From an uncultured Candidatus Saccharibacteria bacterium (lineage in GTDB: Bacteria > Patescibacteriota > Minisyncoccia > Phycocordibacterales > CSBR16-119): 64,000 nt of DNA. The stretch spans positions 22,938 to 86,937 of the forward strand of contig CAYRQF010000003.1 in the NCBI GenBank assembly GCA_964426385.1, in the 5' to 3' direction. The position numbers were made by a program, and so were the translations under genes. Below are positions 9,201 through 63,273 of the stretch, piece by piece (position 1 is the first letter of the stretch; every line of letters starts with the position of its first letter). Below the pieces are notes generated by a model, which ran no database searches, was not told where the DNA came from, and worked only from the letters and a program-made list of their open reading frames with translations.

Positions 9201-12200
9201 TTGCGCCGGCTGCACCACTGCCTCCAACTAACTTCACAGGCTCTGGCACATCAACCTCGAACATCAACCTCACATGGACAGATGTTGCTACAAATGAGAC
9301 AGGGTATGAGGTTCAGAGAGCGGCACTAACTGATACGAATTTTACTAGTCCGACAACGACCACTTACGGACCAAACTCTAACGCCACCTCGATATCTACC
9401 GGCCTCTCTGCGGGTACCGCATATCTATTCCGCATTAGAGCAGTTAGTTCGACAAGCGGACTCAATTCTGTGTGGGTTTACTCTGCCCCTGCTTCGATCT
9501 CTACGCAGGCTGCTCAGACAGCACCGAATGCACCAACTAACCTCACTGGTTCTGCTTCGTCGACATCACAAATAAATCTCTCATGGACAGATAATGCGAA
9601 TAATGAAACAGGCTTCACTCTTAATAGGGCTACAGCTCCTGATTTCAGTTCCGGATTTGTCACCACTAACGTGCCAGCAAACAGTCCGACAGCTCCAAGC
9701 ACGGTTAACCATCCTGTCACAGGGCTTGCTGCAGGACAGACATACTACTTCCAGGTTAAAGCGATAAATGGCACCGGAGATTCCGCTTGGGCAACTCCAA
9801 ACCCTCTTTCTGTGGCTACACAGAATGTTGTGGCCGGCACATGTAATCCTGGTACAGTTGCGCCAATGCTTCCACCGAACAACTCACCGGTTAATGACTT
9901 GTCTAGAACGAATGGTGCCAACAGATCTGTGCAGCTATCATCAGCTGTTACGGGTGCTAATCAGATAACGATATGTTGGGACACTGTTGCTCAGAGAACT
10001 ATAAGCGGCAGTATCTCTGTCTACAGGAAATCAGGTTACACTTCTACGAGCTGGGGTACAGCGATAGCTACTTTGGCTAATACAGAGACAAGTTATGTAG
10101 ACAATAGTGTTACCCAAGGCACTTATTACGAATACAAAGTATCTTTCTCACAGAGTTCAACTTCATCAGCAAGCGGTGTTAGCACTAACGGTACAGCCGC
10201 AGGATACATAGCTACTGGTATAAATGTTCCTGAGGAATCCAGCAGAGGTAAAATGGCCCTAGTTATAGACAACAGTATGGTAACCGGCACTAACGGAAGC
10301 GCTCCAACTGGAGGAGATTCAGCGCTTATGTCTAAAGTAAACACTCTAATAGATGACCTAAATGCTGACCGATGGACCGTCTATCCTATATACGTAGGAC
10401 GTGGTGATACCGTAGCAAGCGTCAAAGCGCTTATCGTTGCGCAGAATCCGGCCGCCATCTACTTGCTAGGACATGTTCCAGTAGATAAGACTCACACAAT
10501 GTCTCCTGACGGTCACGGAGATCAGATACCTTGGTCTTCAGACGCTTATTATTCCGTGTCAGGTACGTACGGAACAACTGTTGCCCCTGTTTATCAGATC
10601 GGCCGAGTCGATGCGTTCAAGATGGAGGTATTCGGCGCCGGTAATCCTTCTAGTGATGCTACCGCCGCTACAGCAGGAGAGAAAACTGTAATAGGAAATT
10701 ATCTGGACAAAGTACACAATTACAAGATTGGCTCCACTACTGTTCAGCAGAGAGCTATTATCAAGGACGCCCTTGATCACGCTTATTCCGGCTTCACTAG
10801 CGCACAAAATGCTACCGTTGGCGCTTGGTCAACATTCCCTTCAGTTGTTGGTTTGGCAAATACATATGTGACCAACGAGAGAGGAACTCTCTTGACTCCG
10901 TCTCTACAGGGCTCGAATGACACATACCTACTCATGCTTGCACAATCTGGTGGACAGTGTGACAGAGATAACGATTCAGCCACTGGAACATCTGCGGGAT
11001 TTGCGGCGATAAGCGGCGGAGCTGTGTTCAACATGGCCGGCGGCAGCCGTTTCGGAAGCTTCGATAACTGTATATCTTTCCGTGAAAATAACTTCTTAAA
11101 AGCGCTGCTGTTCGGTGGTAAAGGAATGGTTAGTCTCTATAGCTTAGATCATCACTGGTATCTCCACTCTCTGGCCATGGGACAGAATATTGGTTATGCG
11201 ACCAAGGTGTCCATGAATAATCACTCTACTCAGGTTTATACACCAGTCAGTTGGTATCAACAGCGAAATTACAACGCTTTTATGAGTCCACTCGGCGATC
11301 CATCTATTCGCGCCTCATACTTTACCATCCCGTCGACGTTTACTGCGAGCGGTACGGCAGGAAACCCTATAAACTTCTCATGGAGCAGTGTTTCAGGAGC
11401 AGAAGGCTACAATGTCTACAAGATTACTTCATCTGCTGTGACTAAACTTAACAGCTCGATGATAGCAAGTACGTCATACACAGGATCTGAAATATATACC
11501 TCAGGAGCCAAATACATGGTGACTGCGCTCGACCTTACGACCTCAGGAAGCGGTGGAACATATTATAGAGAATCCCTCGGAAAGATGACTCTCACAACAG
11601 GTGGAGGCGGAGGAGACTTGGCAGCTCCGACTACACCAGGAAGCTTCGCGGTGAGTGGAACAACTGCCTCAAGCGTAAATCTTACATGGACGGCCTCTAC
11701 AGGTAATCCAGTAGGAGAGGCGGTAACTTACAAGATCCTCCGAAGCAGTGCGACAAACGGCACATATACTCAGGTTGGAACCGATACTGCTTCACCTTAC
11801 TCCGACACGACTGTTACTGCAGGCAACACTTACTACTACAGGATTACAGCTTCTGATGCTGCAAGTAACACTTCACAGCCTGCACCCTCAGCGTCTACAG
11901 GCATCTCTGCTACAACTGTAGACAACCAAGCACCTTCTGCACCGGCAGGACTTATGTCGACAGCACAGACGACGGGAAGCATTACACTCACTTGGAACGC
12001 CTCCACGGGTAACCCTGTAGGCGAGACCATTAACTACAAGGTCTTCCGAAGTACGACAGCTAACGGAACATACACTCAGACAGGTAGCTCTACAACTAAT
12101 ACAACATTCACTGATTCAGGACTAACAGCGGGAACAACTTATTACTATAAAGTGTCTGCAACAGACGCTTCCAATAACTCTTCCGCTCAAAATCCTTCTT

Positions 12201-14989
12201 CGGGTTACGGTGCTGCGACAAGTGCTCAAGCGGACACTCAGCCACCAACCGTACCGACAGGTCTTGCTGTTACAGCAACTACAGCTTCAAGTATTTCGTT
12301 ATCTTGGAATGCTTCAACTGATGTTGGAGGAAGTATCGTACAAGGGTATCTCATTTATCGTAGCGCAACGAGCGGTGGTACATATGACACCATAGGAAGT
12401 TCTAGTGGTACTTCATATACTGATTCTGGTCTTGCCCCTAATACAACTTACTATTACAAGGTTACGGCAATTGATAACTCCCCTAACGGCAATCAGTCTG
12501 CTCAGACACAGTATGTTTCTGGTACAACTGCTGCTGTTACCGGAGGTGGCTCAGGACAGGTACTTGGTCTCATGGGTGTATACGCAGGACCAAACAACAG
12601 TGAGGACGTAACACCGGGAGCTAACCCAGCAGGTGTGTCAGACTACTACGTTGACTGCGTCGCTGGAAATGACAGTAATAATGGAACTTCAGCCGCTACT
12701 GCATGGAGAACACTAGAAAAATTCAACACTTCAGGCGCCGGCCAGATGCAACCAGGATCTAGAGCGTTCTTCAAGAGAGGATGTACGTTCTATAAAACAG
12801 ATGTATATCCGATGGGAATATATGATGGTGGAATCCTCAGGGTTTCTAACTCAGGAAATGCATCAAACTATGTAGAATATAGGGCCTACGGCACAGGAGC
12901 GGCTCCAGTATTCTCTGGCGCGGTACCTGTTACTGGCTGGACTCAACACCAGGGAAATATTTACAAGGCAAACATCGGAGCAAATAAGAACGTTCGATAC
13001 TTGTTTGCCAACAACTCTGGCCAGACACTCGCTCGCTTCCCAAACAAGAGTGCTGGTAATACAGTCTGGATGAAGACAGATCATATCACTAACCCTGGAG
13101 GAGTATCTCTCAATGTCGAAGACTCGTCTTCTACTGATGGAGCACTTCCAACCTCTACAGCAAATAACCTAGCTGGAGGTGAATATGCAGCTAGGTTTAT
13201 GAACTGGGCCTTCGTGGTTGCGCCGATTACAGCCCATTCAGGTCAGACCATTACCGTTTCATTCCAGGGTGGAATGAACCAGGTGCCATGCTACATACCA
13301 AACTGCTCTAACACCATTTATCCTGAAGCTGGCTGGGGATACTTCGTTCAGAACAAGCTATCCCTCCTAGACACCGCAGGTGAGTGGTACTACGACAATG
13401 CCTCTGGTCAACTCTACTTCTGGGCGCCAGGCGGAGTGAATCCGAGCACTATGACTGTAGAAGCGGCAGTTCACCGAAACGGTGTTCACATGCTCGGTGG
13501 TATCCATCATGTAAAGGTAAAGAACCTTGCGTTCGAGAAGTTCAACAAATTCAGTTACGGAAGTTCTGACAAGGGTGCGGCGGTGTTCATTCAAGACTGG
13601 GATGGATCGTCTGGAGTACTCAGTAACATCGTTGAGAATGTTGAGATCAAGAATACTCCTATCGGTGTTCGCGTCGAAGGTGTCGAATCAACAGGACCAT
13701 CAAACGGTAACAAAATACTCAATTCTTATATTCATGACATATTCGACATTGGAATGCTCTCATACGGTCTCGGCCACCTCTACCAGGGTAACGTGATTGA
13801 GAATATCGCTCTGGCCCCTGAGCTTGCCGCTGACACCGATGAGTGGAACCATATGTACGGCTTCGTCTCAACCGGTGGTAACGTTGACTTCATCGGCAAT
13901 ATAGTACGAAATATCGGTTACATCGGAGTTAACTATGTTCAGAACGGTGAAATCCGGAATAACTTAATCGAAAACATATCTCTAACTATTAACGATGGTT
14001 GTGGTATCTGCGCCGATGGAGCAGAGAATGATCTCCTCGTGAAGAGAAATGTTGTTAACCATGTGTACGGAAACATTGTTGGCCTACCTTCAACATTCGT
14101 TCATGCGACAGCGCTTGGCTCAGGTATATCAACAGGCGATAGGAATAGTATCGGTGGAATCTTCGAGGAGAATGTTGTTAACGATGCTGGAAACTCTGGT
14201 ATCACGTTCGACAACAATACCTTCTCGGCGAATATGCAGATGAGGAATAACACGATTTACACGAATCAGCCGGGTAACTCTAACGGTGCTAAGGGTATCT
14301 CAATGTATGATCAGTCTGTGGGCGTATATCACCCAGGAGAGAACAATGCCCAGTCACTCTATGACTTCGATTTGGGTCACAGTGTATACGGTAACAAGGT
14401 TTACACACTACATCAGAACAACAACAGTCTCTATGAGGCACGCGTTCTAACTTCTACAAGTGGTGGACATACAGACTTTGGAGATTATTGGGGCAATTAC
14501 TTCTTCCACCCATACTCTACTAACACAATCGTGAATTATCGACCAGCACCGTTGGTAACCACAGGAGACCTTATCTGGACTCTCACAAATGCACCAGTTT
14601 ATTCAACGGCAAGCACGAACACATCTTCCGGCACTGTGTCAACAGGAACAAAAGGTTATATCTCAGGTACTGAGTCAAACTACCGATGGTTCGTAACTTT
14701 CAACAACGGACAATCTGGCTGGATGAGGTCTTATGAAATCGCAATGGCAAAGAAGAACATCGCAGAATTCCAGCAGGTTTATAACCAGCCTCCATCCGGA
14801 CAGCCTCAGAACACACAGCGTGGAGTAGGGGATTCACTGCCGACGCTTTATGTCAACACAACTGGCTCTCCGATGTCCGCGAATATCGGTTCCGGTAAGT
14901 GCGGAAGTAATGGTCAGACACTCGCAAATCCTTACCCACTTAACACCTTTGCTGATGCGATTGTTCCAGAGATATGTAGCGAGCAATAA
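6221..14989 (+). CDS. giant secreted surface protein (2922 aa): N-terminal repeated beta-sandwich-like domains, dockerin-like Ca-binding repeat pair, at least 6 fibronectin-III domains, central Cys/His globular domain, C-terminal right-handed parallel beta-helix
   Basis: Signal peptide. FN3 signature xAPxNLxxxxxSxxxIxLxWT...NETGY repeated. DVNNDG...NDRD appears twice. NxxIxNN beta-helix rungs near the C-terminus. Confidence 0.9.
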   Translation: MKLQRAFFLVIALVFLVGFTVTVSGPGGASQRAQVTGAVSNQSIRGYSLVNADTDTIIGPLSDGQTIDLAELGTNHVNIVAETSPSVVGSVAFHLDDLARVVKNSAPYALGGHNNAGNFYAANLSVGDHTLKTQAFTLARARGLGSAVSEIRFSVVGGSPRSSGGQTQASSDSTTPISNTQQTHSTPGNVANVTGAEVQEIKSFTLINADTNQEIVAIENGAVLDIQNLGTTNLTIRANATPTNVGSVKFYLDSVAVRTDNLFPYTNVASTTTDDYRPWSFTPGQEYSITAIPFSLSRARGVEGTPLTVSFTIGQNPVGGHEPVVGRSMDPSVPAMGCLTATVTNDPNGGNNPGTITIDWPDVSGHPYYKAWRIQNGQVEVSTENQGGAVTYNSMTPGTWTIRVAFLEAGALPNTSADWGPESEISNLVISTSIPGPVTTTTCGQEPVESAQLKVFLGGAYNSSTGLMSTALNDANVIPLTEPYTGEGYQFTNGSGSSISSGVLNATGNDAIVDWVIVELRNQNNNLDIVSSRPALLQADGEVVGLNGTTPIFDSFSSGTYYVVVHHRNHLAVMTANPVNISNSVDLTNSTLWGTNAAKLVSGTKVLWPGDVNNDGLVKYTGGNNDRDPILQVVGSNTPNNVVTNAYAKADLNMDSTVKHTGTKNDRDIIFQSIGSVDPTVVNVEQLPQPSSTTITSIQVVNTQGVVQQTLSAGQTINIGTQNGGYGTSIALKANTSTSPVPGSVKYTLTRAGNTHENIDNAAPFSSHGDTGGNYTAWTSLQPGAYHLTALPYDGANATGASGTGADFDFVVVNNDTVAPLAPQNVSINYRSADEIRLSWSPSVGATNYQVVRTGNGQTFPLQSGTTFNDTTGLTSNGTFSYVVTAINSNGQVSPNSTSIDAPTLSPAFTAGTLVAPNANNTQVRALPENPTLVGTVNTTNNGSVVTGTSPSGHVVWVKGVTPAPDVRYLRTTFTSPALSGPGWVDQTKLITYVAPAAPLPPTNFTGSGTSTSNINLTWTDVATNETGYEVQRAALTDTNFTSPTTTTYGPNSNATSISTGLSAGTAYLFRIRAVSSTSGLNSVWVYSAPASISTQAAQTAPNAPTNLTGSASSTSQINLSWTDNANNETGFTLNRATAPDFSSGFVTTNVPANSPTAPSTVNHPVTGLAAGQTYYFQVKAINGTGDSAWATPNPLSVATQNVVAGTCNPGTVAPMLPPNNSPVNDLSRTNGANRSVQLSSAVTGANQITICWDTVAQRTISGSISVYRKSGYTSTSWGTAIATLANTETSYVDNSVTQGTYYEYKVSFSQSSTSSASGVSTNGTAAGYIATGINVPEESSRGKMALVIDNSMVTGTNGSAPTGGDSALMSKVNTLIDDLNADRWTVYPIYVGRGDTVASVKALIVAQNPAAIYLLGHVPVDKTHTMSPDGHGDQIPWSSDAYYSVSGTYGTTVAPVYQIGRVDAFKMEVFGAGNPSSDATAATAGEKTVIGNYLDKVHNYKIGSTTVQQRAIIKDALDHAYSGFTSAQNATVGAWSTFPSVVGLANTYVTNERGTLLTPSLQGSNDTYLLMLAQSGGQCDRDNDSATGTSAGFAAISGGAVFNMAGGSRFGSFDNCISFRENNFLKALLFGGKGMVSLYSLDHHWYLHSLAMGQNIGYATKVSMNNHSTQVYTPVSWYQQRNYNAFMSPLGDPSIRASYFTIPSTFTASGTAGNPINFSWSSVSGAEGYNVYKITSSAVTKLNSSMIASTSYTGSEIYTSGAKYMVTALDLTTSGSGGTYYRESLGKMTLTTGGGGGDLAAPTTPGSFAVSGTTASSVNLTWTASTGNPVGEAVTYKILRSSATNGTYTQVGTDTASPYSDTTVTAGNTYYYRITASDAASNTSQPAPSASTGISATTVDNQAPSAPAGLMSTAQTTGSITLTWNASTGNPVGETINYKVFRSTTANGTYTQTGSSTTNTTFTDSGLTAGTTYYYKVSATDASNNSSAQNPSSGYGAATSAQADTQPPTVPTGLAVTATTASSISLSWNASTDVGGSIVQGYLIYRSATSGGTYDTIGSSSGTSYTDSGLAPNTTYYYKVTAIDNSPNGNQSAQTQYVSGTTAAVTGGGSGQVLGLMGVYAGPNNSEDVTPGANPAGVSDYYVDCVAGNDSNNGTSAATAWRTLEKFNTSGAGQMQPGSRAFFKRGCTFYKTDVYPMGIYDGGILRVSNSGNASNYVEYRAYGTGAAPVFSGAVPVTGWTQHQGNIYKANIGANKNVRYLFANNSGQTLARFPNKSAGNTVWMKTDHITNPGGVSLNVEDSSSTDGALPTSTANNLAGGEYAARFMNWAFVVAPITAHSGQTITVSFQGGMNQVPCYIPNCSNTIYPEAGWGYFVQNKLSLLDTAGEWYYDNASGQLYFWAPGGVNPSTMTVEAAVHRNGVHMLGGIHHVKVKNLAFEKFNKFSYGSSDKGAAVFIQDWDGSSGVLSNIVENVEIKNTPIGVRVEGVESTGPSNGNKILNSYIHDIFDIGMLSYGLGHLYQGNVIENIALAPELAADTDEWNHMYGFVSTGGNVDFIGNIVRNIGYIGVNYVQNGEIRNNLIENISLTINDGCGICADGAENDLLVKRNVVNHVYGNIVGLPSTFVHATALGSGISTGDRNSIGGIFEENVVNDAGNSGITFDNNTFSANMQMRNNTIYTNQPGNSNGAKGISMYDQSVGVYHPGENNAQSLYDFDLGHSVYGNKVYTLHQNNNSLYEARVLTSTSGGHTDFGDYWGNYFFHPYSTNTIVNYRPAPLVTTGDLIWTLTNAPVYSTASTNTSSGTVSTGTKGYISGTESNYRWFVTFNNGQSGWMRSYEIAMAKKNIAEFQQVYNQPPSGQPQNTQRGVGDSLPTLYVNTTGSPMSANIGSGKCGSNGQTLANPYPLNTFADAIVPEICSEQ

Positions 14990-23082: not shown

Positions 23083-26000
23083 GTGGTAGCAAATATGTGT
23101 CTTTCATCGCGAATAATAAAAAAAAGCATCGCTTTATTTTCCTTGATTATATTAGGCTTTTTCTTTGCTTGTACTGCTGACGCAGCAACAATTACGGTAA
23201 ACAATGGTACGTCGACCGTGGCAGTCGATGCTTCGTGCTCAATTCGTGAAGCGATAGAGAATGCAAATGATAACGCAGCTACGAATGTGGATTGTACGGC
23301 AGGTTCAGGGACAGACACTCTCGATATACAAACAGATATAGCGCTAACGCTACTTGATCACTCAGGAGTTTCTTCAGATTTTGCAGTTCCTTCGATAATG
23401 GAACCAGTAGTTATACAGGGTAATGGTCATAGCATCGCTCGTTCTGGAGTTACTAGTTTTGGTTTTGCAGACTTTTCAACCACGGTATCTTTGTCTGATA
23501 TTACTATGAGTAACTTTTCTCAGAATGTTTTTGAGGGAGATGGACCACTTACTATTGAAAATTCTACTTTTTCTGAGAACGCTGACTCTGTCGCATATAC
23601 TAATTTCGGTGGTAGTGCGCATCCTTGGGTCATAACAGACTCAGTGTTTACAAACAATAGCAGTACTGATCATGGGGTAATAACCAAAGAGGATGGTGGA
23701 ACTTTGACTATTTCAGGCACTATTTTTTCCGATAATACAAATTACGGTACGTTTGATGGAAGTGCGGTGAGATATTTAAATGGCAATTCCTCGGAAGTCG
23801 TATCTATATCAGACAGCGTGTTCGAGAATAATGTTTATACTGTAGGTGGATGCGGTGCGTTTGGTGTTTCCGCTTCTCAAGATGTAAACATCGAGATAGA
23901 TAATACTGTTTTTGATTCGAACATATCAGAAGCTTGCGGAGGAGGGGTGTCTGTTGAATCAGGATTTGCTTTTGCAACTATCTCGCTTGATATTACAAAC
24001 TCTCTTTTTAAGAATAATGTTGCCCGCGGAACAGGTATTTCTGCAAAAAGCGGGGGAGCTATGTACGTTCAGAATGGGATGAACCTAACACTTACGAACA
24101 ATACTTTTTTCGGTAATTCTTCGCAGGTGAATGGAGGGGCCATCCAGATTCACAATGAGGCAGGAGTGATTGCTATCGAAGCAAAACACAATACTTTCTA
24201 TGGCAATTCTTCTGCGGATGGTGATGGTAATGACATTTACATAGAAACAGGAGCAGGTGATACTTCAGTTTTTGAGAATAATATTTTTGCTAGTGGAGGT
24301 GATGAGTGTGGGGGTGATCTTAGTAGTTTCACTTTTACGAACAATCTTTCGAGTGATGTAGACTGTGGCGGGACCCCGGCTACGTCTTTGGCTAGTGCGC
24401 TTGCTATGAACGGGGCAGGGATAGAGACACTCGCACTTCTAGCAGGAAGTAACGCAATTAATACTGGAATTGCGGGAACTTTAGGGTGTCCAGCAACAGA
24501 TGCTCGAGGTACGGCTAGACCTTCGGGTGTTGCTTGCGATATCGGAGCGTTTGAATTTGTGAACTCTGCTCCCACAGATATTTCCATATCAAATTCTTCT
24601 ATAGAGGAAGGTCAGGAGGTGGGTAATGCTATCGGAGGCCTTGATACTGTTGATGCAGACACTGGTGATACTCATACATATACTATAGCGTGCACCGTCC
24701 CGGGCGCTGATGATGGATCTTTTAGTATCTCAGGGGATTCACTCCGAAGTGACGAAGTGTTTAATCATGAAGTAAAAAGTTCATACATAGTTTGCATACG
24801 AACGACAGATAGTTTTGGTGGGACCTACGATGAGATATTTACTATAACCATAGATCAGGCAGACACATCCTCGAGCGGTAGCAGTTCTGGTCCATCCACA
24901 CCAACACCTCCTGTGCAACCAGTCGTACCAGTAACCCCAATTATTCCAGTCTCTCCTTTGCCCGAGATTCCAGCACCGGTACCAGGCCCTATTTTAGAAA
25001 CTCCAGAAACACCATCTCCGACTCCTGAGACACAGGACGAAACCCCAACAGATGATAATCCTGGGCAAGACCCCTCTCCGAGCTTTCCAGGCGGTGATAG
25101 TGAATCAGATGCGAGTCCTCAAGGCTCGAGTGATGTGATCAGGGATATCGGGGGAGTTCTCGGGGCGGCAATAGAAGAGATTCCGACCAATGTCACGGAC
25201 ACTATCGCAGTAGCTGGCGTAGCGCTACCGGCAATAGTATTCGCACTGAGCCAGCCTGCCGTCGTTGTTAATGTGGTATCTATCCCAATACGATTGTTTA
25301 ATCTAATCCCTGTTTGGCTAGGACTACGTCGCAAGAAGCGACCTTGGGGAACGGTCTATGATTCTGTGACCAAACAACCTCTTGATCCTGTTTATGTAGT
25401 ATTAAAGGATTTGCGTGGAAGAGAAGTCGCCACAACGATAACTGATATAGATGGGCGATTCGGATTCTTGGTTCCAGCGGGTAAATACAATATATCTGTT
25501 AAAAAGGATAATTACGAGTTTCCGTCAAAGAAACTTTCAAACAACTCCAAAGATGAACTTTATGAGAATCTCTATTTTGGAGAGCCTGTAGAAATATCTG
25601 GACAAGAAGATTTACTCATAAAGAATATACCGATGGATGCTACGAATTTTAACTGGAACGAGTTTGAGAAATCTCAGAATAAGTCCCTAATGAAGTTCTA
25701 CTCCAAGAGTGAGCTATTTATCGCTCGTTTCGCCAGTGTGTTATTTTGGGCAGGCCTCGTCGTTTCGATAGTTCTATTGTTTGGCGACCCGACGACACTA
25801 AACTACGTATTATTCGGGGTATATGCCGTTGTCATGATTCTGAGGGTGCTAGGTGTGAGACCAAAGAAGCCGGGTTATGTAACGGAGCAATCGACAGGAT
25901 ACCCTCTATCCTTTGGTGTTATCAAAGTATATTCAGAATCGACCGATACTGAGATCGCTCATAGTGTTATAAGTAAAACCGGTAAATACTACGTTTTGGT

Positions 26001-26124
26001 TCCTAAGGGAAGATATTACGTATCTATACTTAAAAAAGTCGGAGAAGACGAGTACTCAAACGTTTTCAGGTCAGAAAGTATGTTGGTAAAGAGGGGATAT
26101 ATCGCAGACAATCTAAGCGTCTAG
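23083..26124 (+). CDS. large surface protein: Pmp-like (GGAI) parallel beta-helix + choice-of-anchor-Q-like CDIGAFEF motif + cadherin-like domain + Pro-rich stalk + TM segments + two carboxypeptidase-regulatory-like domains
   Basis: Signal peptide. Repeated GGA(I/M) rungs. Linker PSTPTPPVQPVVPV. Hydrophobic helices near 25140-25330 and 25700-25860. Confidence 0.8.
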   Translation: MVANMCLSSRIIKKSIALFSLIILGFFFACTADAATITVNNGTSTVAVDASCSIREAIENANDNAATNVDCTAGSGTDTLDIQTDIALTLLDHSGVSSDFAVPSIMEPVVIQGNGHSIARSGVTSFGFADFSTTVSLSDITMSNFSQNVFEGDGPLTIENSTFSENADSVAYTNFGGSAHPWVITDSVFTNNSSTDHGVITKEDGGTLTISGTIFSDNTNYGTFDGSAVRYLNGNSSEVVSISDSVFENNVYTVGGCGAFGVSASQDVNIEIDNTVFDSNISEACGGGVSVESGFAFATISLDITNSLFKNNVARGTGISAKSGGAMYVQNGMNLTLTNNTFFGNSSQVNGGAIQIHNEAGVIAIEAKHNTFYGNSSADGDGNDIYIETGAGDTSVFENNIFASGGDECGGDLSSFTFTNNLSSDVDCGGTPATSLASALAMNGAGIETLALLAGSNAINTGIAGTLGCPATDARGTARPSGVACDIGAFEFVNSAPTDISISNSSIEEGQEVGNAIGGLDTVDADTGDTHTYTIACTVPGADDGSFSISGDSLRSDEVFNHEVKSSYIVCIRTTDSFGGTYDEIFTITIDQADTSSSGSSSGPSTPTPPVQPVVPVTPIIPVSPLPEIPAPVPGPILETPETPSPTPETQDETPTDDNPGQDPSPSFPGGDSESDASPQGSSDVIRDIGGVLGAAIEEIPTNVTDTIAVAGVALPAIVFALSQPAVVVNVVSIPIRLFNLIPVWLGLRRKKRPWGTVYDSVTKQPLDPVYVVLKDLRGREVATTITDIDGRFGFLVPAGKYNISVKKDNYEFPSKKLSNNSKDELYENLYFGEPVEISGQEDLLIKNIPMDATNFNWNEFEKSQNKSLMKFYSKSELFIARFASVLFWAGLVVSIVLLFGDPTTLNYVLFGVYAVVMILRVLGVRPKKPGYVTEQSTGYPLSFGVIKVYSESTDTEIAHSVISKTGKYYVLVPKGRYYVSILKKVGEDEYSNVFRSESMLVKRGYIADNLSV

Positions 26125-26166
26125 TTACTGTTGACACTGGGCAATAAATAATGCATAATACGGCAT

Positions 26167-27690
26167 ATGAAAATTAGTAAGTTTCTATTTCGCATACTGA
26201 TTGTGTCTTTGGGGCTCTATATGGCCCCATCTGTCTGGGCTGCCGATATTTCGACGGGGGAATATTGCTCATTGGCGGACGCTATCCTTTCAGCAGAGTC
26301 TGACACCGCAATCTCTGGCTGTAGTAGTGGGCAGGGGGCAGATACCATCAGGCTAAGTCAGGATGAAAACATCACCTCGATTCCTCCAGGAGACTTCCCA
26401 GATGGTCAGAATGCTTTCAAGACCATTACTTCAACCATTAGCATACTCGGTTATAACCACACTGTAAGTTTCCAGAATAATACTGCTATCTCCGGGAGAG
26501 TGTTCAACGTTATTGCGGGTGGGAATCTAACTATTTCTGACGTCTTTTTCACAGACTTAAACTCGACTGCAGCATCTATGGAAAACGGTGGATTTATTTT
26601 TGCAGAGGATAGCCGGGTCAAACTGACCAATGTTTCGATTGATGGTTTCCGCGCTACATCATTTGGTGGTGCGATATATTCGGCGAATTCTTCGATTGAT
26701 CTCGTTAAAACAACATTATCTGGTAACCAGATAACATCAGATGGATTTATACTTGGTGGAGGTGCAATATTTCTAGATGCAGGAAGTTTGAAGATTCAAA
26801 ACTCGAAATTTATCGGCAATATTTCTGGTGGGCAGGGTGGAGCGATATTAAATATTGCAGGTTTCGAAGACTTCATAATCTCGCGTTCATTATTTGCCGA
26901 CAACGTGGCAGATTACGGTTCTGCGATAAGCGCTGGCTCAGCGTCATTTAATGATTCGTTGGCTATCGACCGGACTCAGTTTGAGAATAATACTTCAAAT
27001 AACGGGGGAGCGTTCGTTTGGCGTGGAGCAAGTGGAAATATATCTATCTCGAGTTCAACGTTTACTAAAAATCATGGCTTGTCCAGCGCTGCGGCCTTTC
27101 AGAATGATGGAAGTAATAACTTTGTTGCGATTATCAATTCGACCTTCTCACAAAATATTTCAGCCGGAGCTGGTTCGGCAATACTTAATATTGGTAACAA
27201 CAACCAGTTCAGAATCGCCTACGATACTTTTATAAAAAATACCGCCGGTGTCGGGGGTAGGACTTTTAGAAGTTTTTCAATAGAACCTTGGAATAATTCT
27301 GTTTTAGAAAATAGTATTTTTGATAAAAACATTGGTGGAGACTGCGGATTTGTGTCAGTGACCAACTTCACAAAGACCAATAATCTGTCTGGGGATGCGA
27401 CGTGTGGTGATCTCGTCGCTACCAACATATCTATGAATTCGGCATTAAACGGGGGAGTGGTTTTGAATAATGCGCTTCTCGCGGGAAGTAATGCCATAGA
27501 CAAAGCCGTAACCGACGTATCTCTGGTCAGAGTTCCGTGTCCTGGTCTGGATCAAAGAGGGGTTATGAGACCACTAGACGGTAATGCAGATGGATTCGTT
27601 AAATGCGACATTGGAGCTTTTGAGTATAAGCCTAAACATACGACCCTTGTGAGTACGGTGAAAAATAGCCTAAAAACCCAAGTAAAATAA
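26167..27690 (+). CDS. secreted Pmp-like beta-helix protein, paralog of the N-terminal part of the 23083 gene
   Basis: Signal peptide. GGAIY, GGAIFL and GGAILNI rungs. C-terminal CDIGAFEY motif. Confidence 0.8.
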   Translation: MKISKFLFRILIVSLGLYMAPSVWAADISTGEYCSLADAILSAESDTAISGCSSGQGADTIRLSQDENITSIPPGDFPDGQNAFKTITSTISILGYNHTVSFQNNTAISGRVFNVIAGGNLTISDVFFTDLNSTAASMENGGFIFAEDSRVKLTNVSIDGFRATSFGGAIYSANSSIDLVKTTLSGNQITSDGFILGGGAIFLDAGSLKIQNSKFIGNISGGQGGAILNIAGFEDFIISRSLFADNVADYGSAISAGSASFNDSLAIDRTQFENNTSNNGGAFVWRGASGNISISSSTFTKNHGLSSAAAFQNDGSNNFVAIINSTFSQNISAGAGSAILNIGNNNQFRIAYDTFIKNTAGVGGRTFRSFSIEPWNNSVLENSIFDKNIGGDCGFVSVTNFTKTNNLSGDATCGDLVATNISMNSALNGGVVLNNALLAGSNAIDKAVTDVSLVRVPCPGLDQRGVMRPLDGNADGFVKCDIGAFEYKPKHTTLVSTVKNSLKTQVK

Positions 27691-27714: not shown

Positions 27715-27743
27715 TTGACTTTTAGGCCAATAAATGGTATAAA
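27715..27743 (+). promoter_or_regulatory. sigma70-like promoter TTGACT-17-TATAAA
   Basis: Hexamer spacing counted directly from the sequence. Confidence 0.45.
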
Positions 27744-27810
27744 GGAAGTCACACCTGTAGTACCTTGAAAAAGGTCACGAAAATTAAACCAACCAAACCT
27801 AAAACGGAAC

Positions 27811-29583
27811 ATGAAGAACTTGCTTTACCTTACCGGTTTTGCGTTTTTTGCCATCACGGCATCGGCGCAAGAGTACAAGATCGAACCGGGGGTGGGCGAG
27901 ACTATCTCTCCGCTTTCTGGTTCGTATGTCGGTGGAAACAGCTATGTCATCTCTGGCTCTGTGTATCAGGGCTATGACGCTGGCATGGTCTATCGCACCA
28001 ACGCCACCTCTCTCGCATGGGCGAAGAAGGTCTTCGCACTGTCTGAAATTCAAGGCCAAACTATCACCGGTAACGGTGATGTGGTCGCAGTAGGGCAGGC
28101 GAATGGTGACGCACTCATCGTACGTTTGAGTCAGACTGGAGCTACCCTTTGGGCGAAAACCATCGGGAACAGTGCATCCATCGAGCTCATGCGTGGCGTT
28201 GTGGAAGACGCCGCTGGCAACCTTATCGTTGTCGGCGGTATCCGAGACAATACTACAAACGACGAGAATGAATTGGTCATCAAGTTCGACCAGGACGGTA
28301 ACCTGTTGTGGTCTCGCGAGGTCCTGCCGCCATTCGGTAGCATTGACCCAGCGAATCACTTCAACAAGGTGGTCATCCAGAACGATACGATCTTCGCTTT
28401 CGGCACACGGCTTCACAGTCTGAGTCCGGCGGATATATCGATCGGGAAGTTCTCAAGCGATGGAAACTACTCCGAGTTCTACACGGCAGGAAGCATTAGT
28501 AGTGAAATATTCTGCGATGTGACGATGTCCGGACAGGACTTTGTTATATCGTACCTCATGGGGAGTTACACCGGTCTAATCCGGCTCGACCCGAATCTTT
28601 CGATGCTCGCTTCGGTCCAGCTAACACCGACTCTCGGTGTTGGAACCCTCGGTATGAGCGGAGGAATAGTGTCCTGTGGCAGCAACTTCATCATCTGTGG
28701 TGATCGGGTTGTCGTAGGATCAAACTCCTTCGTTGCTGCGGTTGATCAGAACTTCTCGCCCCAATGGGCTGAGATCGTCGAAGCCAATGCTAGTGCAACG
28801 GTCAAGCCGATCGTAGGCTCGATGGGACAAGTGATGATCGTTGGAGCCTCGCAGGTGAACTTTGGAGCGGTGATGTCGGTGGTAGATGGTGCAACTGGGT
28901 TTCCTGTCATGGGATCCTGCGAACCACCACAAACTTTCGGCATCACCAAGACTTCGAATTTCCTCTACAGCGTTGAAATCATTCGCTCGGTCGTACCAGT
29001 TAACTTTGCTAACGTTGGCACTGTTACACTGGTTCCGTATCAGCCTGGTTTCGACCTGTGTGGAGTAACCACCCTTCCGATACATCTCCTGTCGTTCACG
29101 GCGAAAGCTGTTGGACACGATGTGTTGCTCGAGTGGAGCACGGCAACGGAACAGAACAATGATCATTACACGATCGAGAAATCGCGCGATGGTCAGAGTT
29201 TTGAAGAAGTTGTCCGTGTGAATGGCGCTGGCAACAGTGTTAGTACTCAGAGCTACGACGCCGTAGATCATCATCCTTATACAGGGGAGAGCTACTACCG
29301 GTTGAAGCAGACCGATACTGACGGAGCATATACTTACTCCGACCTAGTGCCGGTTACTGTGGATGCTCCAGTGGAGCTCGTGGTTTGGCCGAATCCTATC
29401 GGGAACGGCCAAGTGCTCAGTCTACCGCCTGATGCTGGTGGATATGAACTCCGAGACGTAACAGGGAGGTTGGTAAGTGTCGTTCATGGTACGACTTTGA
29501 TGAGCGGTCTGTCTTCTGGACAGTACACCGTTCGATCGATATCGAACCCCGAGCTTCACACCCAACTACTCGTGACCTTCTAG
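27811..29583 (+). CDS. secreted beta-propeller-like protein with a Bacteroidetes-type C-terminal sorting (T9SS-like) domain
   Basis: Signal peptide ending ASAQ. C-terminal LLSFTAK...LEWSTATEQNNDHYTIEKSRDGQSF...YYRLKQTDTDG motif followed by a ~80-aa beta-sandwich tail. Elevated GC. Confidence 0.75.
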   Translation: MKNLLYLTGFAFFAITASAQEYKIEPGVGETISPLSGSYVGGNSYVISGSVYQGYDAGMVYRTNATSLAWAKKVFALSEIQGQTITGNGDVVAVGQANGDALIVRLSQTGATLWAKTIGNSASIELMRGVVEDAAGNLIVVGGIRDNTTNDENELVIKFDQDGNLLWSREVLPPFGSIDPANHFNKVVIQNDTIFAFGTRLHSLSPADISIGKFSSDGNYSEFYTAGSISSEIFCDVTMSGQDFVISYLMGSYTGLIRLDPNLSMLASVQLTPTLGVGTLGMSGGIVSCGSNFIICGDRVVVGSNSFVAAVDQNFSPQWAEIVEANASATVKPIVGSMGQVMIVGASQVNFGAVMSVVDGATGFPVMGSCEPPQTFGITKTSNFLYSVEIIRSVVPVNFANVGTVTLVPYQPGFDLCGVTTLPIHLLSFTAKAVGHDVLLEWSTATEQNNDHYTIEKSRDGQSFEEVVRVNGAGNSVSTQSYDAVDHHPYTGESYYRLKQTDTDGAYTYSDLVPVTVDAPVELVVWPNPIGNGQVLSLPPDAGGYELRDVTGRLVSVVHGTTLMSGLSSGQYTVRSISNPELHTQLLVTF

Positions 29584-29616
29584 CGCTTACTCCTTCAAGA
29601 CGAACCCGTCTTGAAT

Positions 29617-29649
29617 AGGGGAACCCCGGCTTTGGCCGGGGTTTTTCGT
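29617..29649 (+). terminator. rho-independent terminator
   Basis: ccccggctttggccgggg hairpin followed by a T-run. Confidence 0.6.
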
Positions 29650-29665
29650 TTATAGGTGTGGGGGC

Positions 29666-29694
29666 TTGCATTCTAAAGGCCACCATAGTAAAGT
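29666..29694 (+). promoter_or_regulatory. sigma70-like promoter TTGCAT-17-TAAAGT upstream of rpsL
   Basis: Hexamer spacing counted directly. Confidence 0.4.
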
Positions 29695-29728
29695 ATTGCC
29701 ACTAGTCTTTTCTGGACTATTTTTTTAA

Positions 29729-37985: not shown

Positions 37986-38813
37986 TTGGGTCAGGAAACG
38001 AAACGAAAACCAGAACCTTCCATGAGAAGTACAGAAACTAAGACTCTCGTCTTTCCGGGACTTCCACATTACGGGGTCTGGCGGACACTCCAGATCGAAC
38101 ACGAGGCGGTGATACGTTGGGGGCCATATCGTGAGTGCAATACGCGCTTGCACGAGCAAACAAACCTGCACCACATCGTCAGCCTGCTGCGCATCAGTGA
38201 TCTGTACCTGCGTAACCTTCTCGGGTACGTGGTGTTCAACCTCGGTATGGTGAACACAGTGGCACAATGCCACGAGGATGGAGAAGCGGTACTCGGCAGG
38301 GATGTGAACTACAATGTGAAGACTGGTGCAGATGACTTCGCAGAGTGGGTGGCATTCCGGGATATGTTGAGTGGGGCACTCAAGGAGATGAAGCAGAGAG
38401 AGGAGCTACATAAGGCTTTTCTCCTTCAGTTCATTCTCGGCGACGTGTCTCATTTTGAGCAAGACCCCGAGGCGTTTGCCATCATCCAGGATCTCCAGCA
38501 TTACAGTTTGCTGGAGGCCAGACTCTTCAACGCCCTCGAGCGTCTCGATTATATCTACTACGCATGGCAGGCGTATGAGGACACTGGGGACGTGGTGATC
38601 CTGACACATGTGCTTCGCAGACATGTCCCTAAACTGAAGGAGTATGCATCCGGCATGATCGACGGCTTCAGCAAGGTGATGTGGACACCAGAGCAGCAGT
38701 CGCAAGCCGAGGAGATCATCGAGATGTTCAGGGAGATGCCTGGTCCGGACGGAGAGGAGATGTGGCCGGCCTACGAATGGGCAATTAAGAACGGCCACTG
38801 GAAGCCGAGATGA
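37986..38813 (+). CDS. hypothetical protein, family not recognised
   Basis: 275-aa ORF with distinct GC-rich codon usage (CTG/GTG/CAG-rich). Strong hairpin terminator follows. Confidence 0.6.
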   Translation: MGQETKRKPEPSMRSTETKTLVFPGLPHYGVWRTLQIEHEAVIRWGPYRECNTRLHEQTNLHHIVSLLRISDLYLRNLLGYVVFNLGMVNTVAQCHEDGEAVLGRDVNYNVKTGADDFAEWVAFRDMLSGALKEMKQREELHKAFLLQFILGDVSHFEQDPEAFAIIQDLQHYSLLEARLFNALERLDYIYYAWQAYEDTGDVVILTHVLRRHVPKLKEYASGMIDGFSKVMWTPEQQSQAEEIIEMFREMPGPDGEEMWPAYEWAIKNGHWKPR

Positions 38814-53900: not shown

Positions 53901-54368
53901 AGTGTGCACCTCGCAAACTGGCCCGACCAGAAGCCGACTGACCCGAAAATCTCCGAGGATATGCAGTCTGTCCGTGAGCTTGTTACTCTAGGTCTCGAGC
54001 TCCGTCAGAAGAGTGGAGTTAAGGTCAAACAACCTCTCGCAAGCTTTACTGTAACCAAGGAGCTAGCAGTCGAATACCAAGAGCTTCTAAAAGATGAGCT
54101 CAACGTTAAAGAGATTGCCGTCGGCGAAGCTGTTGGTTTAAACACGGACATCACACCAGAGCTCAAGAGGGAGGGAGACTTCCGAGAATTCCTGCGAAAC
54201 GTTCAGGGTCTTCGTAAAGACGCAGAACTTTCTCCGAACGACATGGTTACTTTGATTGCCCCAGAATCCTCTAAAGAGGTAATCATCGGTTTTGAAGGTG
54301 AGCTCAAGAAAGTTGCCGGGATAAAAGAAATAAAATTCGAAGGAGAGGAAATTAGGATAGAAAAATAA
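50964..54368 (+). CDS. ileS: isoleucyl-tRNA synthetase with an inserted histidine-phosphatase (PGAM-like) domain and two in-frame SLEAKSDKLEAS repeat insertions
   Basis: PHCWRCKTPLIYY, KMSKS, WFDSGAMP and DIWILERL motifs. Insert ~52465-53050 carries RHGQSDAN, LTELGQKQA, SPILRARQTA and AHQGT motifs. Confidence 0.95.
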   Translation: MDKDTSTPKKSDAALKEEAVLKFWADNGIFEKSLAKDSPKGEFVFFEGPPTANAKPALHHLEARAFKDVIPRYKTMQGFHVRRQGGWDTHGLPVELQIEKKLGLNSKKAIEEYGIEKFNRECRESVFQYIKDWEDFTDRIGYWVDKKNAYFTFDNSYIESVWNVMAKVNERGLLYKDYRIVPWCSRCGTPLASHELAQGYEDVKDLSIFVKFKVVGATNTYLLAWTTTPWTLPGNVALAVGEKIDYVKVKIGEELLILAKTRLEVLTESYEIVEEIKGSDLVGLSYEPLYPFIANSLEAKSDKLEASFKVYSADFVTTEDGTGIVHIAPMYGQDDFELGTKIGLPKEHVVGVDGKFLPDTGFFSGRFAMEKDENGKPTLAVDVINDLTTRGLFFGKKNYEHTYPHCWRCKTPLIYYARDSWYIRMSELRDELVRENESINWEPSHIKEGRFGEWLREIKDWAISRERYWGTPLPVWVAEDGEKWVVGSVDELRKHTKQSITKIIFVRHGQSDANVALVSSSVRDAHPLTELGQKQARDTAEKLQSHDIDVVYCSPILRARQTAEAYLELAGKEMMLDDRLAEIGSGSWEEKTQHDPSIKAERDAYKAMSPDERFVFKRGSTGESWSDLQTRVKDFLDEVLAKHAGKTIVCFAHQGTDEIGIKLLRSLDNKYAAENLFHEIENGEVFPLYIDDRTQKEFDLHRPFIDDVVLEKDGKEFRRVKEVMDVWFDSGAMPFAQHHYPFENKEYVDGPGYPADFISEAVDQTRGWFYTLHAVGVLMGKGRAYNNCICLGHILDDKGKKMSKSIGNIVNPWEMMDKYGVDTLRLWMYSVNQPGDSKNFDEKTVAELRNKIFNLLYNVIAFYELYRDKSLEAKSDKLEASSNVLDIWILERLAELSNTMTTGLDSYKLMEPVRAMREFIDELSTWYVRRSRDRLKDGDQDAKRTLYIVLKNMARFLAPFAPFAAEDIWQTLRTDADPLSVHLANWPDQKPTDPKISEDMQSVRELVTLGLELRQKSGVKVKQPLASFTVTKELAVEYQELLKDELNVKEIAVGEAVGLNTDITPELKREGDFREFLRNVQGLRKDAELSPNDMVTLIAPESSKEVIIGFEGELKKVAGIKEIKFEGEEIRIEK
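51849..51885 (+). repeat. 36-bp repeat cactagaagctaaaagcgataagctagaagctag, in-frame within the ileS editing-domain region
   Basis: Near-identical copy at 53571-53606; related copies at 61387-61417 and 32868-32963. Confidence 0.8.
53571..53606 (+). repeat. 36-bp repeat copy, in-frame within the ileS anticodon-binding region (1 nt different from copy 1)
   Basis: tcactagaagctaaaagcgataaactagaagctagt. Confidence 0.8.
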
Positions 54369-63230: not shown

Positions 63231-63273
63231 TCTCTTACAATAGGGCTAGCATTATAAATAACTTCTCAATCAA

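Follow-up and report, generated by a model that had tools for sequence, protein, structure and literature searches.

What is a gene with the layout of Bacteroidota T9SS cargo doing in a bacterium that, judged by its translation genes, belongs to the Patescibacteria? The question is raised by one reading frame in the 64-kb stretch of DNA analysed here (the window), which a first-pass annotation had described as a secreted protein with a Bacteroidota-type sorting domain, possibly acquired horizontally. The frame was found exactly at the position annotated, and independent assemblies contain an identical 590-aa protein. The gene and its parts are as follows:

27811..29583, plus strand: complete CDS, 590 aa and stop codon, secreted multidomain protein
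27811..27867, plus strand: signal peptide, aa 1-19, by inspection; predicted SPase I cleavage between ASA and Q
27868..29061, plus strand: clade-specific N-terminal region, aa 20-417, with an SBBP-like beta-propeller repeat core at about aa 80-240
29062..29358, plus strand: 'LLSFTA' pre-CTD domain, aa 418-516, an Fn3/Ig-like beta-sandwich
29359..29580, plus strand: divergent T9SS type-A C-terminal domain (CTD), aa 517-590, with the motifs PNP, D-x-x-G-R-x-V and G-x-Y

Two long antisense reading frames overlap the gene on the minus strand (27799-28416 and 28720-29274); they were put down to its GC-rich coding sequence and discounted. The predicted order of parts, a signal peptide following the Q-rule, a beta-propeller passenger, an Fn3-like pre-CTD domain and a type-A CTD, is the layout of Bacteroidota T9SS cargo.

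Export signal and domains

The N-terminus, MKNLLYLTGFAFFAITASA followed by QEYK, is by inspection a classical signal peptide with an ASA-Q cleavage context. A Sec signal peptide was recognised, also by inspection, in all family members, which bears out the secretion and the ASAQ context annotated before. The predicted cleavage leaves a Gln at the mature N-terminus and thus matches the Q-rule for Bacteroidetes SPase I substrates, which have Gln directly after the signal-peptide cleavage site (PMC5837995). Q occupied position +1 in all 13 family members whose N-termini are complete, and also in two further CTD proteins of locus L011; in six secreted proteins lacking a CTD (about four families) from the same loci the residue was A, S or Y. 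Among the secreted proteins compared in these loci, Q at +1 is confined to those bearing a CTD. This Gln may turn into pyroglutamate by cyclisation and shield the N-terminus; a glutaminyl cyclase was not seen in the 64-kb window.

A conserved domain ahead of the sorting tail had been recognised in the first pass by the block LLSFTAK...YYRLKQTD.DG, and it is real. The block (aa 422-515) shares 40-55 % identity with its counterpart in hundreds of Bacteroidota proteins, where it directly precedes PF18962 (e.g., block 597-695 and CTD 701-769 in protein P0006). Pfam left the LLSFTA domain unmatched both in the window protein and in the six Bacteroidota homologues searched, NCBIfam gave no match to it in the window protein, and a PDB sequence search with the domain gave no significant match. 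AF2 modelled the domain with a pLDDT of 95-98 and the CTD as an all-beta structure with 87-97; Foldseek matches of the two-beta-sandwich model were generic tandem Fn3/Ig pairs, with PorU at rank 2.

For the T9SS-type tail itself the outcome was divided: the family profile and the motifs uphold it, the HMM on the window protein alone does not. The tail (aa 517-590) opens with a canonical PNP motif and scored 15.2 bits (E 0.016) against TIGR04183, below the cutoff of 23, and Pfam gave no match to it at E<=1. Across the family TIGR04183 matched at the same position in 11 of 14 members, three above the cutoff (25.1, 25.5 and 24.8 bits) and eight sub-threshold, and in the remaining three it was undetected; PF18962 matched six of seven orthologues at E<=1. 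A profile of seven tails matched the CTD structures of RgpB (5hfs, 5.9e-7; 7pq4, 1e-6; 5ag8/9, 3e-6), of F. johnsoniae substrates (8glj_D, 1.2e-5; 8glk_D, 2.2e-4) and of mirolase (8qb1, 3.2e-3). WD40 matches outranked the CTDs in this search, but no single WD40 stretch passed. P527-N528-P529, G552, G570 and Y572 are invariant in the seven orthologues; three family members have no detectable tail similarity, and one lacks PNP. Despite the sub-threshold score of the single sequence, this family-level evidence identifies the tail as a predicted divergent type-A T9SS CTD.

The propeller of the N-terminal region is a putative binding module. NF047494 (SBBP) gave a weak local match at aa 100-174 (31.8 bits, cutoff 400), and a Pfam search gave no match to PF06739 (SBBP repeat) in the window protein. 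AF2 placed beta-strand repeats at aa 80-230 with a pLDDT of 80-93 and modelled aa 247-422 poorly; two cysteines of the region, C370 and C417, are invariant. The repeat core matched 16,565 proteins, a single full-length stretch being present in only about eight clusters. Best full-length matches were other clade members with 87-145 bits, as against at most 52 bits for Bacteroidota proteins; the closest full-length homologues are thus of the same lineage, and the expectation that they would come from outside it failed. A search of 5.8 billion proteins brought up no Bacteroidota protein closely related to the N-terminal region over its full length, so that no donor of the whole gene can be named and this part of the protein may be native. 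A scan of GTDB representative genomes with the region returned only a weak Saprospiraceae repeat match.

This N-terminal region without a close Bacteroidota counterpart invites a chimeric origin, in which a Bacteroidota pre-CTD domain and CTD were fused to a native patescibacterial propeller, or else an old and widely shared Ig-like pair which in this lineage had no link to a T9SS at any time. Such shuffling of surface modules is displayed by the neighbouring 'Choice-of-anchor' surface proteins, and the C-terminal module was by BLAST equally close to Bacteroidota and to distant clade members, a comparison biased because the Bacteroidota set had been chosen for similarity to the window protein. 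We nevertheless regard this origin as unlikely: the enrichment in GC is even over N-terminal region, pre-CTD domain and tail in all seven genes, the Q-rule N-terminus strictly co-occurs with the CTD, which argues for whole-gene ancestry, and Bacteroidota proteins of the same layout are known (SBBP propeller, LLSFTA domain and CTD; P0010, 27 % over 82 % of the length).

Host lineage

The first-pass annotation had proposed that the genome either belongs to the FCB group or borrows from it. The first half of this proposal was overturned by the translation genes. Named relatives of EF-G were Paceibacterota, Parcubacteria and Lloydbacteria with 73-75 % identity and 1200-1240 bits (inter-phylum baseline 860-890 bits), and named relatives of ThrRS were all Patescibacteria; label exceptions among these relatives were two uninformative 'bacterium' entries and one MAG labelled Bacteroidetes. 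Neither the top 120 of the EF-G search nor those of the ThrRS search contained Bacteroidota. The ribosomal protein operons run S5-L15-SecY without L30 (locus L010), and at the usual sites L9 is missing after S6-SSB-S18 and L1 after SecE-NusG-L11; loss of L1, L9 and/or L30 is frequent in CPR bacteria (bioRxiv 10.1101/2022.01.07.475337). By these markers the host is assigned to the Patescibacteria/Parcubacteria (Paceibacteria-like), outside the FCB group, and borrowing from that group is the best reading. Membrane-anchored FKBP, YceI and DsbA-like proteins are encoded as well.

No T9SS machinery had been noticed in the window before, and none was seen now, nor any outer-membrane biogenesis gene, in the 64 kb and in clade contigs totalling about 150 kb (about 150 called genes). 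For the Patescibacteria an absence of the outer membrane has been proposed (PMC12102498). One MAG of the clade (GCA_020850255.1) carries the submitter label 'Bacteroidetes bacterium', which counts against our main explanation and would favour an ordinary T9SS cargo protein of an organism that in truth belongs to the diderms of the FCB group or bears a T9SS. The clustering of several CTD proteins in locus L011, all with Q-rule signal peptides, points the same way. The label appears to be wrong, however, and the reading is very improbable in view of the patescibacterial relatives of EF-G and ThrRS, with an EF-G score far over the baseline, of the gaps at L30, L1 and L9, of the called genes free of T9SS and outer-membrane functions, and of the other secreted proteins, which do not follow the Q-rule.

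The locus, its composition and its history

The gene is flanked by signals of its own:

27715..27743, plus strand: sigma-70-type promoter, -35 TTGACT, 17-nt spacer, TG-extended -10 TATAAA, read from the sequence
29622..29651, plus strand: intrinsic terminator, stem AACCCCGGC/GCCGGGGTT, loop TTTG, followed by a T-run, from sequence and RNA fold

The clean promoter TTGACT-17-TATAAA claimed earlier is present, near-consensus, predicted to be strong, and common to all nine orthologous loci (window, L006-L011, L012/L013). Its core, TTGACTTT-N9-AAATGGTATAAA, is invariant among them, unchanged even where the encoded proteins are only about 28 % identical. It is the sole TTGAC-N16-18-TAnAA[AT] site in 64 kb, and it escaped a consensus scanner on account of the A at the sixth base of the -10 element. 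The invariant 20 bases matched metagenome contigs 39 times, only twice at family members (both in assembly JACCDT01); the other matches are at unrelated genes, which is to be expected of a near-consensus sigma-70 promoter. RNA folding of 29575-29700 yielded -51.6 kcal/mol (z = -3.5), and a comparable GC-rich hairpin with a T-run lies downstream of the L012 orthologue. With its own terminator, the gene would form a monocistronic unit ahead of rpsL. In at least eight independent loci rpsL directly follows it (and rpsG too, where the contig reaches; the short contigs L008 and L013 end before rpsL), and the orthologous proteins at this locus range down to 27-35 % identity. Locus, promoter and terminator have been kept across genomes with EF-G just 85-94 % identical. 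An assembly chimera was ruled out, the arrangement being common to nine independent loci. From this conservation we conclude that the family has long occupied one fixed locus and that the gene is no isolated, recent arrival by transfer.

The reading frame is undisrupted in all 14 diverged family members. dN/dS was 0.17-0.25 across the full-length gene, 0.14-0.22 for the N-terminal region, 0.09-0.25 for the pre-CTD domain and 0.32-0.49 for the CTD; all domains are under purifying selection, which is relaxed in the CTD but short of neutral. Of the suspected horizontal acquisition, the link to Bacteroidota/FCB by transfer stands as the best reading, and its recency falls with the fixed locus and the purifying selection. 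A recent transfer that left a functionless, decaying remnant of a Bacteroidota neighbour's cargo gene would account for the elevated GC, the sub-threshold CTD and the relaxed tail. Such a remnant is hardly credible and already contradicted by the data, since the frame is intact throughout the family, dN/dS is 0.1-0.5 in every part, locus, promoter and terminator are conserved, and the N-terminal domain is clade-specific.

The composition of the gene had been described as rich in GC3 relative to the neighbours. This is correct for the upstream genes (GC3 0.34-0.39, clearly below the gene), yet the gene is no statistical outlier in the window: GC was 52.3 % against 46.2 % for the window (rank 3 of 42 ORFs, z = 1.9), GC3 57.9 % against a mean of 48.7 % for the other ORFs (rank 5 of 42, z = 1.3), and the codon-usage distance was unremarkable (rank 27 of 42). 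The orthologue stands out as an extreme outlier in relatives with low GC, e.g., in L010 with a GC3 of 0.59 versus 0.19-0.29, and in every host genome examined the gene over its whole length is richer in GC than the genome. A GC3 of 0.5-0.6 after a long stay in genomes with a GC3 of 0.2-0.3 is unlike simple amelioration and counts against our main explanation; it raises the question of amelioration versus a composition driven by recombination. In the comparison of the window with L008 the flanks were 96.6-97.5 % identical and the gene 84.2 %, in blocks of 56-99 %; towards L007 the flanks were about 74 % identical and the gene 80.4 %. The locus is a recombination mosaic, and the history of the gene is decoupled from that of its flanks. 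The genome encodes ComEC, and the mosaic of alleles presumably arose by ordinary homologous recombination after DNA uptake.

Proposed role and comparison with known systems

We consider it probable, with considerable room for doubt, that the reading frame is a resident patescibacterial gene, predicted to be expressed, for a Sec-exported surface or extracellular protein with the layout of Bacteroidota T9SS cargo. The gene or its ancestor would have been acquired from Bacteroidota as a whole gene; Bacteroidota are over-represented as donors of horizontally transferred genes to Patescibacteria (PMC12455944). The host would possess neither an outer membrane nor a T9SS, so that Sec and signal peptidase I would release the protein straight to the surface or the medium. 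The two C-terminal beta-sandwiches may now act as a stalk or as an anchoring or structural module and no longer direct T9SS export in cis. Allele swapping driven by recombination would diversify the protein, as for the host- or partner-recognition protein of an epibiont. The protein, variable and of Bacteroidota ancestry, likely acts at the cell surface or in host interaction, and its CTD would have ceased to serve a T9SS in cis.

The CTD might instead serve in trans. The family would then be a domesticated, recombining and predicted highly expressed cassette of a Parcubacteria-like clade, whose CTD, perhaps together with the Q-rule N-terminus, docks on a Bacteroidota host: the T9SS of the host would still recognise the CTD, and its PorV/PorU attachment complex would tether the epibiont protein to the host cell, or, in a variant, the secreted protein would jam host secretion. 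PNP, DxxGRxV and GxY have been retained in tails that are only 18-38 % identical among the family, the tail is under purifying selection with three members above the TIGR04183 cutoff, the locus recombines in the manner of a host-interaction gene, and HGT and co-occurrence have led to proposals of associations between Bacteroidota and Patescibacteria (PMC12455944). Natural T9SS substrates, however, arrive by way of the periplasm, and there is no evidence of T9SS components taking extracellular ones; the tails of the family reach at most about 25 bits, compared with 30-45 bits in genuine cargo, three members have lost the tail similarity and one PNP, and dN/dS of the tail is roughly double the value for the remaining protein. 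Docking in trans is for these reasons distinctly unlikely. If it is true, the locus would determine host range, and the Bacteroidota would be the long-sought hosts of this Paceibacteria lineage.

Under the preferred reading of a resident surface protein, the nearest parallels are the type-A cargo proteins of Bacteroidota (P0006, P0009, P0010, P0013). They share with the window protein the Sec signal peptide with Gln at +1, the order of passenger, 95-aa LLSFTA beta-sandwich and C-terminal beta-sandwich of 70-75 aa, and in the latter PNP, DxxG(R/K)xV and GxY; P0010 has the whole layout of propeller, LLSFTA domain and CTD. The window protein differs by its patescibacterial host, in which no T9SS was seen, by its clade-specific N-terminal region and by a weaker tail (15 versus 30-45 bits). 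Its gene is fixed beside the str operon, with a sigma-70 consensus promoter and not one of the Bacteroidota type. RgpB of P. gingivalis likewise joins an Ig-like domain to a CTD beta-sandwich (IgSF-CTD; 5AG8/5AG9, 5HFS, 7PQ4), and the family tail profile matches both RgpB and the translocon-bound CTDs of F. johnsoniae substrates (8GLJ/8GLK). For the CTDs of RgpB and F. johnsoniae, export by the T9SS and removal by PorU were shown experimentally; for the CTD described here neither can be taken for granted. T9SS CTD annotations outside FCB genomes need not mean contamination.

Variable loci that evolve by allele swapping include phage receptor-binding proteins and the surface-antigen cassettes of bacteria. 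The present locus resembles such surface and recognition loci in a divergence decoupled from the flanks and in mosaic blocks common to several lineages; unlike variable surface cassettes, it has no repeats, silent cassettes or invertases nearby. In the literature searched we found no description of a secretion-cargo family that combines retained sorting hallmarks with mosaic alleles at a fixed locus, and nothing relevant on Patescibacteria or CPR together with T9SS. Transfers from Bacteroidota to Patescibacteria in groundwater MAGs were read as a sign of close association or a host-symbiont link (PMC12455944). Those cases involve the same donor and recipient phyla as proposed here and concern mainly informational and metabolic genes (e.g., gyrB), in contrast to the secretion cargo of this study. 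Hosts and mechanisms of attachment are unknown for most Parcubacteria/Paceibacteria, and the three independent Bacteroidota signatures, Q-rule N-terminus, pre-CTD domain and type-A CTD, provide a testable lead to a Bacteroidota partner. T9SS-cargo hallmarks in a CPR bacterium with a tiny genome hint at a past or present intimacy with Bacteroidota.

The gene and the domains of its product

The gene lies between a 507-aa ORF upstream and rpsL, rpsG and fusA downstream, and its transcription unit consists of the following elements:

27811-29583, + strand: coding sequence of 590 aa, a single long ORF in the ORF listing
27715-27743, + strand: promoter TTGACT-17-TATAAA, 68 nt upstream of the ATG, with TG immediately ahead of the -10 box
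29622-29651, + strand: terminator, a GC-rich hairpin with a T-run behind it, closing the transcription unit

The promoter was missed by a consensus scanner that demands T as sixth base of the -10 box; a regular expression applied to both strands identified it as the sole TTGAC-N16-18-TAnAA[AT] site of the whole 64-kb window. ORF, signal peptide, C-terminal block and own promoter were all present as described in the first-pass annotation. The elevated GC reported there was also observed, with 52.3 % GC and 57.9 % GC3 for the gene vs 46.2 % GC for the window and a mean GC3 of 48.7 % in the other 41 ORFs, but the contrast within the window is modest: rank 3 of 42 for GC (z = 1.9) and 5 of 42 for GC3 (z = 1.3). 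The synonymous-codon distance to the rest was unremarkable (27 of 42), the tetranucleotide deviation ranked 16 of 208. Two antisense ORFs within the gene (27799-28416 and 28720-29274, minus strand; 205 and 184 aa) are in all likelihood non-coding and owed to the GC richness of the sense frame.

The N-terminus, MKNLLYLTGFAFFAITASA|QEYK, is predicted to be a textbook signal peptide. NCBIfam models gave a weak SBBP-propeller match at aa 100-174 and placed TIGR04183 (Por_Secre_tail) on aa 525-578, where the score of 15.2 bits falls short of the cutoff (23); a Pfam search of the protein gave no match. The conserved block of the first-pass annotation corresponds to aa 422-515, and the final 74 residues start with VVWPNP. 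A search of 5.8 billion proteins revealed four full-length relatives (100, 83, 79 and 66 % identity) and more than 400 further proteins matching mostly aa ~418-580; P0005, P0010 and P0071 were among the few that aligned, with 25-27 % identity, over ~80 % of the length. PF18962 was present in almost all listed matches to aa ~418-580, and the named ones were all Bacteroidota (Bacteroidia, Chitinophagales, Crocinitomicaceae, Fluviicola, Roseivirga). In pairwise comparisons, the block, part of an Fn3/Ig-like domain termed LLSFTA, was 42-52 % identical to homologues, the alignment continuing into the PNP tail. In these homologues PF18962 starts a few residues past the block, and the passengers ahead of both vary (RCC1, ice-binding, galactose-binding-like). 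LLSFTA has no counterpart in Pfam, NCBIfam or PDB sequences; its position before PF18962 behind such varied passengers therefore bears out the first-pass assignment of a domain preceding the C-terminal domain (CTD) of type IX secretion (T9SS) cargo.

AlphaFold2 modelled aa 418-590 from a 92-sequence alignment as two beta-sandwiches (mean pLDDT 93.7). Foldseek matches of this model, tandem Fn3/Ig pairs and PorU, are consistent with the CTD assignment but non-specific. Specific evidence came from the sequences: a profile of seven orthologous tails matched type-A CTDs of solved structure, those of gingipain RgpB (5hfs, 5.9e-7; also 7pq4 and 5ag8/9), translocon-bound Flavobacterium substrates (8glj_D, 8glk_D) and mirolase. 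Nominally better WD40 matches of the profile were dismissed as sums of sub-significant repeats. TIGR04183 recurred at the same C-terminal position in 11 of 14 family members, in three above the cutoff, so that the sorting-domain assignment, below threshold for the protein alone, is carried by its relatives. From these similarities we conclude that the tail is a divergent type-A CTD homologue.

The host lineage

The window carries, on one strand, a dense array of housekeeping genes, including those for aminoacyl-tRNA synthetases, ribosomal proteins, ComEC and RNase H. Named relatives of its EF-G were Paceibacterota, Parcubacteria, Lloydbacteria and 'Patescibacteria group' with 72-75 % identity and 1200-1240 bits, compared to a baseline of 860-890 bits for Thermus, Staphylococcus and E. 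coli. Its ThrRS is related to those of Campbellbacteria, Kaiserbacteria and Parcubacteria (66-68 %), and Bacteroidota ThrRS were absent from the best 120 matches. L15 and SecY directly follow S5 without L30 in the related contig L010 (17798-18851), and adenylate kinase instead of L9 comes after S6-SSB-S18 in the window (62727-63738) and in L003 (17118-19022); both are typical CPR ribosomal-protein gaps. SecE-NusG-L11 has no L1 behind it, and L10 and L7/L12 were likewise not found at this position of the window. The usual place of rplA holds a 275-aa ORF with TTG start (37986-38813), negative in the Pfam search and with the top GC3 of the window (0.659). FKBP, YceI and a DsbA-like protein carry predicted uncleaved N-terminal membrane anchors, which would be a monoderm arrangement; an outer membrane has been proposed to be absent in Patescibacteria (PMC12102498), and the T9SS is 'rarely if ever found outside' Bacteroidetes (PMC5837995). 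Two markers, EF-G and ThrRS, together with the operon features thus place the host in a patescibacterial clade and argue against a genome of the FCB group, one of the origins considered initially.

The contig L009 (GCA_020850255.1, JADZEZ010000013.1) is labelled 'Bacteroidetes bacterium'. Because it has the same locus architecture and an EF-G 89 % identical to that of the window, this is probably a mislabel. It also carries a Kelch/NanM-like mutarotase gene followed by a gene for a DUF4907 protein; DUF4907 is chiefly a Bacteroides family.

Elsewhere in the window, a giant secreted protein of 2922 aa (6221-14989), with four stretches matching part of an exoglucanase CbhB model, occupies the most tetranucleotide-deviant region, with unusually high GC2 (0.51) and low GC3 (0.41). 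Precomputed Pfam matches place a histidine-phosphatase domain (His_Phos_1) between the tRNA-synt_1 segments of the isoleucyl-tRNA synthetase (50964-54368, 1134 aa).

Conservation and recombination at the rpsL locus

The order choice-of-anchor-Q surface proteins, the gene, rpsL, rpsG, fusA was repeated in independent Logan, JGI and ENA assemblies and in more distant genomes of the clade (EF-G 85-89 %), where the gene before rpsL encodes 587-602 aa with 28-29 % overall identity. The N-terminal region was clearly common to the orthologues of two of the three distant loci, L010 and L011; for the N-terminus of the L009 orthologue no match was found. An exhaustive search added two family representatives with the same promoter, one upstream of rpsL-rpsG (L012), the other (L013) on a contig too short to reveal the adjacent gene. 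The promoter core TTGACTTT-N9-AAATGGTATAAA was identical in all nine loci. Among four close orthologues, dN/dS (Nei-Gojobori) was 0.14-0.22 in the N-terminal region, 0.09-0.25 in LLSFTA and 0.32-0.49 in the tail; at 0.09-0.49 throughout, every domain is therefore constrained. The tail is about twofold relaxed, matching its patchy HMM detection and the fact that one member has lost PNP. A stray transferred cargo gene, as initially suspected, does not describe this conserved family with fixed locus, shared promoter and constrained domains.

In GCA_013565695.1, family members stood behind the same promoter on two different contigs, L022 (JACCDT010064677.1) and L046. The assembly is apparently very fragmented, with contig names numbered beyond one million; the finding suggests two related patescibacterial strains in the sample.

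Compared to the related contig L008, the window was 96.6-97.5 % identical across the two upstream genes, but 84.2 % in the gene itself, with blocks ranging from 56 to 99 %. At 27901-27990, L008 shared 96 % identity with L007, from which it is distant elsewhere, and only 73 % with the window. Window and L007 shared ~74 % identity in the flanks and 80.4 % in the gene, and the LLSFTA segment had a dS of 0.09 to the relative P0002, vs 0.5-0.7 on either side. The gene has thus had a history separate from that of its flanks, with alleles or segments passing between lineages, as is typical of recognition surface proteins.

The upstream neighbours (23083-27690) are two consecutive secreted proteins of 1013 and 507 aa with 'choice-of-anchor Q' domains and POMP-like repeats, very low GC3 (0.34-0.39) and signal peptides cleaved before Ala; here window and L008 agree to 97 %, unlike in the adjoining gene.

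Probable foreign ancestry and putative function

The C-terminal module of LLSFTA and CTD is one pointer to a foreign origin; others are the signal-peptide cleavage context and the base composition. Gln directly follows the predicted cleavage site in each of the 13 family members whose N-terminus is complete, in line with the Q-rule of Bacteroidetes, while +1 is A, S or Y in six CTD-free secreted proteins of about four families at the same loci. On L011 (JACCDT011052664.1 of GCA_013565695.1; 3861-8868), three adjacent genes encode proteins of 564 and 392 aa (both on the minus strand) and the 602-aa orthologue, each with a signal peptide before Gln and a PNP...GxY CTD-like tail; for the 564-aa protein, the scores on TIGR04183 (34.8 bits) and PF18962 (32.7 bits) are both above the cutoffs. 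With a GC3 of 0.39-0.45 vs 0.27-0.31 in neighbours, these genes give the impression of a small cargo-gene island of Bacteroidota style by the str operon. Among relatives of lower GC, the orthologue stands far outside the composition of its neighbours: GC3 is 0.59 vs 0.19-0.29 in ten listed neighbours on L010 (7134-8921), 0.51 vs 0.21-0.28 on L009 (915-2678) and 0.51 vs 0.23-0.29 on L012 (602-2380). ThyA is a second outlier on L009 (0.635). The GC enrichment is even across N-terminal region, LLSFTA and tail. A GC3 of 0.51-0.59 lasting through long residence at one locus in these three genomes, where ribosomal and other genes lie at 0.19-0.29, is beyond simple amelioration; recombination may be behind it, via GC-biased conversion or repeated import.

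Bacteroidota are reported to be disproportionately frequent gene donors to Patescibacteria (PMC12455944). A simple transfer of the whole gene from Bacteroidota is, however, opposed by the N-terminal ~380 aa, which are clade-specific: clade members score 87-145 bits mutually, Bacteroidota at most 52 bits, at the level of repeats. The exhaustive search gave just about eight clusters with a single full-length match; two of them could be located on contigs, where both have the clade promoter and one precedes rpsL.

The gene is a monocistronic unit with near-consensus promoter for a protein of Sec-type signal peptide, propeller-like passenger, Fn3-like domain and CTD homologue under purifying selection. 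Sec and SPase I would export this protein to the surface of a cell that lacks an outer membrane. Gln-1 may become pyroglutamate, which, according to one account, raises the stability of extracytoplasmic proteins in Bacteroidetes (PMC10653852). The protein would bind through its propeller, while its C-terminal sandwiches would persist as structural or anchoring parts, not as cis export signal. That the CTD still acts in trans on T9SS surface components of a Bacteroidota host seems improbable.

The initial observation of T9SS-type cargo features is thereby confirmed and its interpretation partly right. Instead of an FCB genome with a stray cargo gene, the sequences point to a conserved, recombining family of Bacteroidota-cargo type, predicted to be expressed, in a patescibacterial clade. 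No description of such a family in Patescibacteria was found in the searchable literature. Its domains and the direction of horizontal gene transfer are known; the cellular context and the behaviour of the locus are unexpected.
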